From NCBI RefSeq assembly GCF_003019035.1, contig NZ_CP027447.1: DNA of 64,000 nucleotides; one strand, given 5' to 3'. A program made the position numbers and the translations under genes. The stretch comes from Escherichia coli (lineage in GTDB: Bacteria > Pseudomonadota > Gammaproteobacteria > Enterobacterales > Enterobacteriaceae). Below, piece by piece: positions 21,707-27,086 of the stretch; position 1 is the stretch's first letter; the number at the start of each line of letters is the position of its first letter. The notes beneath the pieces were generated by a model. It worked only from the letters and a program-made list of their open reading frames with translations. It had not been told where the DNA came from and searched no databases.

Positions 21707-22402
21707 TCACTGCCCGTAATATGCCTTCGCACCATGCTTACGCAGATAGTGTTTATCCAGCAGCGTTTGCTGCATATCCGGTAACTGCGGCGCTAACTGA
21801 CGGCAGAATATCCCCATATAAGCGACCTCTTCCAGCACGATGGCGTTATGCACTGCATCTTCGGCATTTTTGCCCCATGCAAATGGGCCGTGAGAATGGA
21901 CCAGGACGCCGGGCATTTGCGCCGCATCGATACCCTGTTTTTCGAAGGTTTCTACGATGACGTTACCGGTTTCCCACTCATATTCACCGTTGATTTCTGC
22001 GTCGGTCATTTTGCGGGTGCAGGGAATGGTGCCGTAGAAATAGTCGGCGTGGGTGGTACCGGTTGCTGGAATCGACTGACCCGCCTGCGCCCAGATGGTG
22101 GCGTGGCGCGAGTGTGTGTGCACAATGCCGCCAATGGACTGGAATGCCTGATAGAGCAGCCGGTGAGTTGGCGTGTCGGAGGAGGGCTTTTTCGTTCCTT
22201 CAACCACTTCACCGGTTTCGATGCTGACCACGACCATATCGTCAGCGGTCATGACGTTGTAATCGACGCCGGAAGGTTTGATCACCAAGACGCCGCGCTC
22301 GCGATCAACGGCGCTGACGTTACCCCATGTGAGCGTGACCAGGTTATGTTTTGGCAGCGCCAAATTGGCTTCTAATACCTGGCGTTTGAGATCTTCTAAC
22401 AT
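21707..22402 (-). CDS. araD: L-ribulose-5-phosphate 4-epimerase
   Basis: ORF track 21707..22432; start trimmed to [30 protein letters not shown]... giving 231 aa. Confidence 0.95.
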
Positions 22403-22424
22403 GTTGACTCCTGAGAGGTCGTTT

Positions 22425-22462
22425 CCCCTCACCCCGGCCCTCTCCCCAAAGGGGCGAGGGGG
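22425..22462. repeat. GC-rich imperfect palindromic intergenic repeat (cccctcaccc...ccctctcccc-aaa-ggggcgaggg)
   Basis: Read directly; a second copy lies at 27961-28010. Confidence 0.6.
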
Positions 22463-22470
22463 AAAACAAT

Positions 22471-22652
22471 GCCGGATGCGCTTTGCTTATCCGGCCTACA
22501 AAATCACAGCGTGTAGGCCTGATAAGACGCGTCGGCGTCGCATCAGGCGGTGAATGCCGGATGCGCTTTGCTTATCCGGCCTACAAAATCACAGCGTGTA
22601 GGCCTGATAAGACGCGTCAGCGTCGCATCAGGCGTTACACACCTGATGCGGC
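22471..22652. repeat. REP/BIME-type palindromic elements, ~84-bp unit duplicated in tandem
   Basis: gccggatgcgctttgcttatccggcctacaaaatcacagcgtgtaggcctgataagacgcgtc(g/a)gcgtcgcatcaggcg present twice (22471-22554, 22555-22638) plus a partial palindrome to 22652. Confidence 0.8.
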
Positions 22653-26207: not shown

Positions 26208-27086
26208 ATGGCTGAAGCGCAAAATGATCCCCTGCTGCCGGGATACTCGTTTAACGCCCATCTGGTGGCGGGTTTAACGCCGATTGAGGCCAACGGTTAT
26301 CTCGATTTTTTTATCGACCGACCACTGGGAATGAAGGGTTATATTCTCAATCTCACCATACGCGGCCAGGGGGTGGTGAAAAATCAGGGACGAGAATTTG
26401 TCTGCCGACCGGGTGATATTTTGCTGTTCCCGCCAGGAGAGATTCATCACTACGGTCGTCATCCGGAGGCTCGCGAATGGTATCACCAGTGGGTTTACTT
26501 TCGTCCGCGCGCCTACTGGCATGAATGGCTTAACTGGCCGTCAATATTTGCCAATACGGGTTTCTTTCGCCCGGATGAAGCGCACCAGCCGCATTTCAGC
26601 GACCTGTTTGGGCAAATCATTAACGCCGGGCAAGGGGAAGGGCGCTATTCGGAGCTGCTGGCGATAAATCTGCTTGAGCAATTGTTACTGCGGCGCATGG
26701 AAGCGATTAACGAGTCGCTCCATCCACCGATGGATAATCGGGTACGCGAGGCTTGTCAGTACATCAGCGATCATCTCGCAGACAGCAATTTTGATATCGC
26801 CAGCGTCGCACAGCATGTTTGCTTGTCGCCGTCGCGTCTGTCACATCTTTTCCGCCAGCAGTTAGGGATTAGCGTCTTAAGCTGGCGCGAGGACCAACGC
26901 ATTAGTCAGGCGAAGCTGCTTTTGAGCACCACCCGGATGCCTATCGCTACCGTCGGTCGCAATGTTGGTTTTGACGATCAACTCTATTTCTCGCGAGTAT
27001 TTAAAAAATGCACCGGGGCCAGCCCGAGTGAATTCCGTGCCGGTTGTGAAGAAAAAGTGAATGATGTAGCCGTCAAGTTGTCATAA
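26208..27086 (+). CDS. araC: arabinose operon regulator AraC
   Basis: ORF track 26157..27086; start trimmed to [45 protein letters not shown]... giving 292 aa. Confidence 0.95.

Follow-up and report, generated by a model that had tools for sequence, protein, structure and literature searches.

Two short GC-rich repeats are present in the window, i.e. the whole stretch of Escherichia coli DNA analysed here (64,000 nucleotides, 64 kb). The first (termed copy 1) is situated between araA and araD, and the second (copy 2) between yabI and thiQ. The gene order of the window is that of E. coli K-12, and E. coli strain SCU-301 shows 100% identity to the window segments tested. The positions of both copies, of their parts and of the neighbouring features are collected in Table 1.

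Copy 1 is found about 195 nt past the araA stop codon, beyond two REP/BIME units. In the mRNA sense (minus strand), the order of elements is the araA stop, the two REP/BIME units (22650–22470), the sequence UUGUUUU, and copy 1. This is followed, on the same strand, by AAACGACCUCUC, an AGGAG Shine-Dalgarno sequence (22412–22408) and the araD AUG (22402). The Shine-Dalgarno sequence is 12 nt from copy 1, and the araD start codon is 22 nt downstream of copy 1. Copy 2 is located in the 81-nt spacer between the convergent yabI and thiQ genes.

Table 1. Positions in the 64-kb window of the two repeat copies, their parts and the neighbouring features.
Feature	Position	Strand	Basis or remark
araD	21707–22402	−	flanks copy 1
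57-nt strain-variable segment holding copy 1, between the araD Shine-Dalgarno and the first REP	22413–22469		alignments
BoxC profile match, copy 1	22422–22467		nhmmer, E = 1.8e-13
BoxC/TMECO core, copy 1 (type B, one mismatched triplet); minus strand CCCTCGCCCCTTTGGGGAGAGGGCCGGGGTGAGGGG	22425–22460	−	match to published pattern
Copy 1 arm A, CCCCTCACCCC; on the G-rich strand the third, reverse-Hoogsteen block, GGGGTGAGGGG	22425–22435	+	sequence, triad analysis
Copy 1 arm B, CCCTCTCCCC; direct repeat of arm A, complement of the purine block GGGGAGAGGG	22438–22447	+	sequence, triad analysis
Copy 1 arm C, GGGGCGAGGGGG; pairs with arm A or arm B, one mismatch in either case	22451–22462	+	sequence, triad analysis
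Two tandem REP/BIME units, ~86 nt each (separate repeat family)	22470–22650		sequence and alignments
araA	22656–24158	−	flanks copy 1
yabI stop	27934–27936	+	flanks copy 2
Extended type A unit, strain-variable: 5′ extension TTGCATCGGCGCTGGTTTGTT, core, 3′ extension ACTGTCCGTGCGCTTT; abuts the thiQ stop	27945–28018		alignments
BoxC profile match, copy 2	27962–28011	+	nhmmer, E = 2.8e-17
BoxC/TMECO core, copy 2 (type A, one mismatched triplet); minus strand CCCTCGCCCCTCTGGGGAGAGGGTTAGGGTGAGGGG	27966–28001	−	match to published pattern
thiQ stop	28018–28020	−	flanks copy 2

The core sequence CCCTCTCCCCNNNGGGGCGAGGG has two exact occurrences in the 64-kb window, at positions 22438–22460 and 27979–28001 (no mismatches), and none was found in 100 dinucleotide-preserving shuffles of the window. 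The two copies are the same over about 39 nt except for a 3-nt spacer (CGG vs TAA) and one loop base. On the plus strand, copy 1 (22425–22462) consists of CCCCTCACCCC-GG-CCCTCTCCCC-AAA-GGGGCGAGGGGG, and copy 2 (27966–28002) of CCCCTCACCC-TAA-CCCTCTCCCC-AGA-GGGGCGAGGGG.

An earlier first-pass annotation of this DNA, made from the letters alone, had reported a GC-rich sequence at two places in the window. Both are present, with none expected by chance, and the profile search described below finds exactly these two sites. The positions given there for copy 1 (22425–22462) are right. Those given for copy 2 (27961–28010) are close to the family-level match in Table 1, but the core itself is at 27966–28002. 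Both copies had also been placed at the 3′ ends of genes. The flanking genes were named correctly; copy 1, however, is not simply at a 3′ end, as it lies inside the araBAD operon.

Each copy displays three blocks. Arms A and B are direct repeats of CCCTCNCCC, and arm C complements each of them with one mismatch. Read on the minus strand, the order in each copy is a pyrimidine block, CCCCTCGCCCC, a 3-nt loop, a purine block, GGGGAGAGGG, a second 3-nt loop, and a G-rich block, GGGTGAGGGG. The second loop on the G-rich strand is CCG in copy 1 (type B) and TTA in copy 2 (type A). When the purine block is assumed to be Watson-Crick paired to block 1 and reverse-Hoogsteen paired to block 3, nine out of ten triads are canonical in each copy (eight C-G*G and one T-A*T), and there is one G.A*A mismatch, which is the published "mm" form. 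Judged by sequence, both copies fit a class II purine-motif triplex in which one mismatched triplet is allowed. The copies had previously been described as imperfect GC-rich palindromes. This description holds, but the third arm was missed, and it is the three-block layout that defines the published triplex motif.

It is nearly certain that both sequences are copies of the intergenic repeat known as BoxC, PIT or TMECO. The BoxC repeat of E. coli is said to have been described by Bergler et al. in 1992 and by Bachellier et al. in 1996. It was found again as PIT ("potential intrastrand triplex"; Hoyne, Maher et al. 2000, 2002) and was renamed TMECO (Holder et al. 2015, PMC4666352). In Cozzuto et al. 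(2008; PMC2267715), BoxC figures among the known families of E. coli, with a length of 56 bp and 32 copies, and 22 K-12 sequences are given.

The pattern that defines TMECO, CCCTCNCCC-N3-6-GGGNGAGGG-N3-GGGNGAGGG (PMC4666352), has exact minus-strand matches at positions 22426–22460 and 27967–28001 of the window, and no match in 100 shuffles. A profile built for nhmmer from the 22 published K-12 BoxC sequences (PMC2267715) yields the two matches shown in Table 1 and no further match with E < 0.09 in the 64-kb window. The nearest of the 22 sequences are 89% and 92% identical to the window copies. In addition, the 36-mer of copy 1 is identical to K-12 TMECO no. 3 (Table 1 of PMC4666352), which is type B with one mismatched triplet, and the 36-mer of copy 2 is identical to K-12 TMECO nos. 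19 and 22, which are type A with one mismatched triplet.

Both loci are found in the published catalogue of these elements (Table S8 of PMC4666352). The ara locus is no. 82 (E24377A positions 68414–68379), and it shows 100% identity to window positions 22416–22470. The yabI-thiQ locus is no. 258 (IAI39 positions 82649–82614), and there it also lies between yabI and thiQ. The IAI39 orthologue differs from copy 2 in the first loop (TCT in copy 2 vs TTC). Both loci are missing from the K-12-based catalogues of 22–33 copies, K-12 being empty there.

Everything tested agrees with BoxC/PIT/TMECO, i.e. the pattern, the 36-mers, the loops, the mismatched triplet, and the intergenic, multicopy and strain-variable character. 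Membership holds on every feature that is testable by sequence here, and the window copies show no difference of substance from the family. The first-pass annotation had set these copies apart from the REP units as a second family, had left that family without a name and had suggested a comparison with repeat catalogues. The separation is borne out, as the copies do not align to the K-12 REP alleles at the same sites; the name is BoxC, PIT or TMECO, and the catalogue holds both loci. The family has been known since the 1990s and both loci were catalogued in 2015. Thus there is nothing new in the identity, and the two copies have little weight as a discovery.

The similarity to other BoxC loci is not limited to the 36-nt core, as these match window positions 27943–28020. 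Six further copies were aligned: those at eutH-eutG, upstream of fepB, at tkt-ypfG, downstream of gabT, at rhaA-rhaD, and downstream of alx. In copy 2, the 5′ extension, TTTGCATCGGCGCTGGTTTGTT, is the counterpart of the 28–29-nt spacer of inverted type B/type A doublets, an arrangement found at five K-12 sites (PMC4666352). By this correspondence copy 2 resembles one half of a doublet, namely the type A half, and copy 1 is a type B unit standing alone. It may be added that the eutH-eutG element is an inverted doublet, and that the element between rhaA and rhaD (E. coli 98191) is situated in a second sugar operon, in a position that mirrors that of the araA-araD copy.

The two loci are polymorphic among strains. 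A junction-spanning query finds the ara copy in 1568 of 5426 E. coli genomes (29%), and the BoxC allele of the yabI-thiQ spacer is present in 182 of the 5426 (3.4%). K-12 MG1655 has neither copy; K-12 and O157 carry REP/BIME sequence at both sites. At the ara locus, K-12, O157 Sakai and S1-ISR-02-A display CTCCT-TCG-TGCCGGATGCG, i.e. TCG where the window has 57 nt, and in these three strains the first REP is directly next to the araD Shine-Dalgarno sequence. There are three BIME units at ara in K-12 and S1-ISR-02-A, and two in O157 Sakai as well as in the window. Because of these unit counts, the number of BIME units can be said to vary independently of the presence of BoxC.

At the yabI-thiQ locus, the alleles differ over the whole stretch that starts at position 27945 and ends with the first base of the thiQ stop codon. 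At least four forms are found: the type A BoxC (the window and IAI39), a BoxC with a 12-nt deletion (F3_13_1_3), a REP pair (K-12), and a partly deleted REP pair (O157). The thiQ stop codon is TAA in the window vs TAG in K-12, and the allele swap thus reaches the stop codon. In F3_13_1_3 the 12 nt are lost between two direct-repeat arms and a plain hairpin is left. This deletion is of the slippage type, i.e. what replication slippage between arms A and B would produce. Eroded elements of this kind are the "TMECO mutated" of Holder et al. (PMC4666352).

Neither a target-site duplication nor a clean empty site is seen at ara or at yabI-thiQ; at the former the 57 nt replace TCG, and at the latter the whole spacer is swapped. 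A simple insertion with target duplication was rejected at both loci on the basis of the allele alignments. TMECO loci have been reported to be more variable between strains than control intergenic sites or random hairpins (PMC4666352), and the alleles at ara and yabI-thiQ fit this excess variability. The variability near the copies could come from the neighbouring REP/BIME sequences rather than from BoxC. Insertions of boxC at BIME loci in natural isolates were reportedly described by Bachellier et al. in 1997 (Genetics 145:551).

It should be noted that in IAI39 two hypothetical genes and a fragment of an IS630 transposase are situated between araC and yabI (positions 80121–81665). The window has none of them, its araC ending at position 27086 and its yabI beginning at position 27172.

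A blastn search with copy 1 gives matches in 5403 of 5426 complete E. coli genomes, at 1–36 places per genome with a median of 18. This range agrees with the published TMECO counts per strain, which extend from 1 (IHE3034) to about 30 (PMC4666352). The repeat is a family and not a lone pair; the first-pass annotation had named the presence of only two copies, with no conservation, as the outcome that would speak against a family.

The E. coli repeats are almost entirely chromosomal, with just 46 of 91079 BoxC-related places on plasmids. Only three of 50697 phage records show a match and all are odd records. The records of Campylobacter phages A18a and A11a (MG065686.1 and MG065691.1; 174 kb) have three places each that are 94% identical to E. 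coli BoxC. These are unexpected in Campylobacter phages and may represent foreign DNA in the records. Matches are found in 503 of 72556 plasmid records, many of which are mislabelled chromosomes or alphaproteobacterial megaplasmids. BoxC-related sequence is also found on plasmids of Klebsiella, Rhizobium, Sinorhizobium and Azospirillum. Across the 50697 phage and 72556 plasmid records, nothing points to BoxC being carried by typical mobile elements in E. coli.

A scan across genomes with the published pattern shows at least five genomes with matches, and none is enterobacterial among the matches listed. The Methylomirabilota MAG JACPAT01 has at least 13 matches to the TMECO pattern and Mitsuaria chitosanitabida at least 145; the pattern is also present, among the matches listed, in a Candidatus Contendobacter MAG and in an unclassified MAG. 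By this pattern, the TMECO motif reaches beyond the Enterobacteria and also beyond the Proteobacteria. In the distant carriers (the Methylomirabilota MAG, Mitsuaria and the rhizobial plasmids) the three blocks are kept and the loops are different. Retention of the blocks in distant bacteria is not easily squared with purely neutral DNA, and it hints at possible selection on structure or recognition by a protein. Among the matches listed, the Methylomirabilota MAG shows the same doublet layout as E. coli, with 29–31-nt spacers, and Mitsuaria shows the opposite doublet arrangement, with variable spacers.

The doublets raise the question of mobility. BoxC may be a non-autonomous element of the REPIN or MITE type, whose unit is the inverted doublet (type B, ~29-nt spacer, type A), moved by a putative trans-acting enzyme that recognises the folded strand. 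The window copies would then be half-elements. The inverted doublets of E. coli, with the homology of the copy 2 5′ extension to their spacer, are consistent with this, as are the same architecture in the Methylomirabilota MAG, the high number of matches in Mitsuaria, the variation from 1 to 36 copies between E. coli strains, and the sharp presence or absence at both loci. We nevertheless consider such an element unlikely, given the alleles at ara and yabI-thiQ, where a target-site duplication and a clean empty site are both lacking, and the rarity of the sequence on phages and on E. coli plasmids. To our knowledge, BoxC has no associated transposase. In addition, most loci are common to strains (PMC4666352), which suggests little recent movement.

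A more specific proposal is that BoxC is the half-site of a REPIN-like mobile doublet, that its three blocks are recognised by a putative structure-specific enzyme, and that the ara and yabI-thiQ copies are insertion relics at sites which REP/BIME also use. This proposal is speculative and we hold it to be quite unlikely. If true, structure-specific recognition would explain the shared blocks and the doublet spacing in E. coli and Methylomirabilota despite the different loops.

The folding of the copies was predicted with ViennaRNA, whose model does not include triplexes. As RNA the predicted hairpins reach −24 to −28.5 kcal/mol, and as DNA they reach −10 to −12 kcal/mol; the favoured pairing is between the outer arms. 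The z-scores of the fold against shuffled sequence are modest (−1.5 to −2.5 for the RNA folds, −1 to −2.6 with RNA and DNA taken together), because any sequence with the composition of the BoxC copies folds well. With the araD leader context the z-score is −0.3.

Both copies are in transcribed spacers, and the transcribed element could act as a stem-loop that blocks 3′-to-5′ exonucleases or modulates translation. The araBA or the yabI/thiBPQ mRNA would then be stabilised, or araD translation would be tuned. The predicted stability of the RNA hairpin and the short distance between the end of copy 1 and the araD Shine-Dalgarno sequence downstream of it are in accordance with this, and BoxC is also found between rhaA and rhaD in another strain. 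Moreover, the alternative allele at both sites is REP/BIME, and REP elements are known to have mRNA-stabilising activity. The modest z-scores, in particular that with the araD leader context, do not favour such a role. Each copy is missing from most E. coli genomes; the cell can thus do without it at its locus, which speaks against an important role there. For elements of this family, PMC4666352 summarises the literature as showing neither promoter nor terminator activity (the latter citing Hoyne and Maher 2002), nor any influence on RNA polymerase, and K-12 elements show no bias in the orientation or the function of neighbouring genes (PMC4666352). On balance, we regard an RNA-level role as unlikely. 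An mRNA-stabilising hairpin and a protein-binding site were the two roles put forward in the first-pass annotation, and neither gained support from this analysis.

No Rfam match was found at either copy; the four Rfam hits in the window (SgrS, leucine leader, TPP and PssrA) are all elsewhere. An assignment to a known RNA family was rejected, as no Rfam covariance model reaches its gathering score at the two sites.

Copy 2, in its extended type A form, might serve as an intrinsic, possibly bidirectional terminator between yabI and thiQ. When its conserved 5′ and 3′ extensions are included (27952–28019), a longer hairpin is predicted, which is closed by GGCGC/GCGC (28012–28015) and followed by TTTT (28016–28019); for yabI this layout is terminator-like. 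A T-run is present 12–17 nt after the core in most of the type A copies examined, and there is no other terminator-like site in the 81-nt yabI-thiQ spacer. The U-tract (UUUUAACC), however, is short, the other copies examined do not retain the outer pairing, the thiQ-sense strand has no T-run after the hairpin, and no terminator activity is reported for PIT elements (PMC4666352, as above).

A consensus scan detected no promoter-like or terminator-like site overlapping either core, and gave no terminator call for copy 2. No U-run directly follows either core, the adjacent sequences being GAAAAC and ACTGTC on the plus strand, and GAAACG and AACAAA on the minus strand. Since there is no scan call at the cores and the outer pairing of copy 2 is not conserved, the terminator reading was not adopted; we consider it improbable. 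A local RNA effect at either site retains some standing because copy 1 is near the araD Shine-Dalgarno sequence and copy 2 is between convergent genes that have no canonical terminator.

Formation of the triplex in vitro was demonstrated by CD and NMR, with a Tm of 70–74 °C for type B mm and type A mm oligonucleotides (PMC4666352), which are the TMECO types of copies 1 and 2. In the chromosome, DMS footprinting in vivo gave no sign of the triplex (PMC4666352). The G-rich strand also has four G-runs (GGGG AGA GGG CCG GGGG TGA GGGG), and a three-tetrad G-quadruplex is possible in principle (PMC4666352). The NMR spectra of the same oligonucleotides, however, display 18 sharp imino signals, which fit the triplex and not the quadruplex (PMC4666352), and on these data the quadruplex was set aside. 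The complementary C-rich block in the same strand also favours a hairpin. As to a specific protein-binding site, we know of no protein that binds BoxC. Either of these, a quadruplex or a specific binding site, is very improbable as an explanation of the two copies.

The reading that we favour, with a probability of about 0.7, is that the two copies are repeated, structure-prone DNA that has no locus-specific job and is variable by insertion, by exchange with REP/BIME, by slippage and by loss. In favour of it are the absence of the copies from most strains, the lack of any promoter, terminator or Rfam signal at them, the negative functional reports on the family, and the published excess variability of TMECO loci. 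In a single strand, blocks 1 and 2 would pair as a hairpin, and block 3 would then fold into the groove to form a purine-motif intrastrand triplex. Blocks 1 and 3 could instead form the hairpin, and this is what the prediction gives for RNA. A hairpin or triplex formed in this way by the single strand during replication or repair may lead to instability. BoxC elements would be inserted, swapped with REP/BIME, eroded by slippage between the direct-repeat arms, and lost, and the spacers would as a result be unusually variable. The copies at ara and yabI-thiQ themselves presumably have no function. Structure as the cause of the instability is a step that we infer, because the in vivo DMS footprint saw no triplex.

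Over the length of the window, the plus strand has a positive GC skew. From this skew, the G-rich, triplex-forming strand would be the leading-strand template here. As published TMECO data show no strand bias (PMC4666352), no conclusion is drawn from this placement. In the literature searched, no later functional work on TMECO, PIT or BoxC was found after 2015.

BoxC may be compared with other repeats of this type. Like REP/BIME, BoxC elements are short GC-rich imperfect palindromes in transcribed intergenic spacers and are strain-variable, and REP/BIME is the neighbour of BoxC at ara and the alternative allele at yabI-thiQ. The sequences, however, are unrelated. The BoxC copies have no motif of the GCCGGATG/CATCCGGC type, and the BoxC profile gives no match on the adjacent REPs at positions 22470–22650. 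REP is a two-arm palindrome, whereas BoxC has three blocks, and REP is present in several hundred copies per genome compared with tens for BoxC. REP has known partners (RAYT/TnpA-REP, gyrase, IHF and Pol I) and a known stabilising effect on mRNA; for BoxC neither such partners nor such an effect are known.

REPINs and MITEs such as ERIC/IRU are similar to BoxC in being small, non-coding, intergenic sequences with strong hairpins, and the BoxC doublets are likewise inverted pairs with a short spacer. Unlike them, BoxC is without a known cognate transposase and has no target-site duplication at the two loci, and the window copies are single units. H-DNA or mirror-repeat motifs share with BoxC the purine- and pyrimidine-rich blocks, the G*G-C and T*A-T triads and a tie to genome instability. 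The BoxC triplex, in contrast to H-DNA, is formed within one strand by double fold-back (class II) and not from a duplex mirror repeat.

The strain differences have a consequence for annotation, as one based on K-12 misses both copies, K-12 having REP/BIME there. In the araA-araD spacer, just upstream of the araD ribosome-binding site, common laboratory strains differ from about 29% of E. coli genomes.

The Rfam hits elsewhere in the window include RNAs that are expected in this region: SgrS at positions 34165–34390 (plus strand), the leucine operon leader at 39149–39298 (minus strand), and a TPP riboswitch at 31300–31399 (minus strand), upstream of the thiBPQ operon. The remaining hit, PssrA (RF02797, "plasmid-encoded Shigella sRNA A"; positions 60799–60889, plus strand, 102 bits), corresponds to the chromosomal ftsA/ftsZ junction. 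The name is misleading for this locus, because the sequence is chromosomal and is present once in 5424 of 5426 E. coli genomes.
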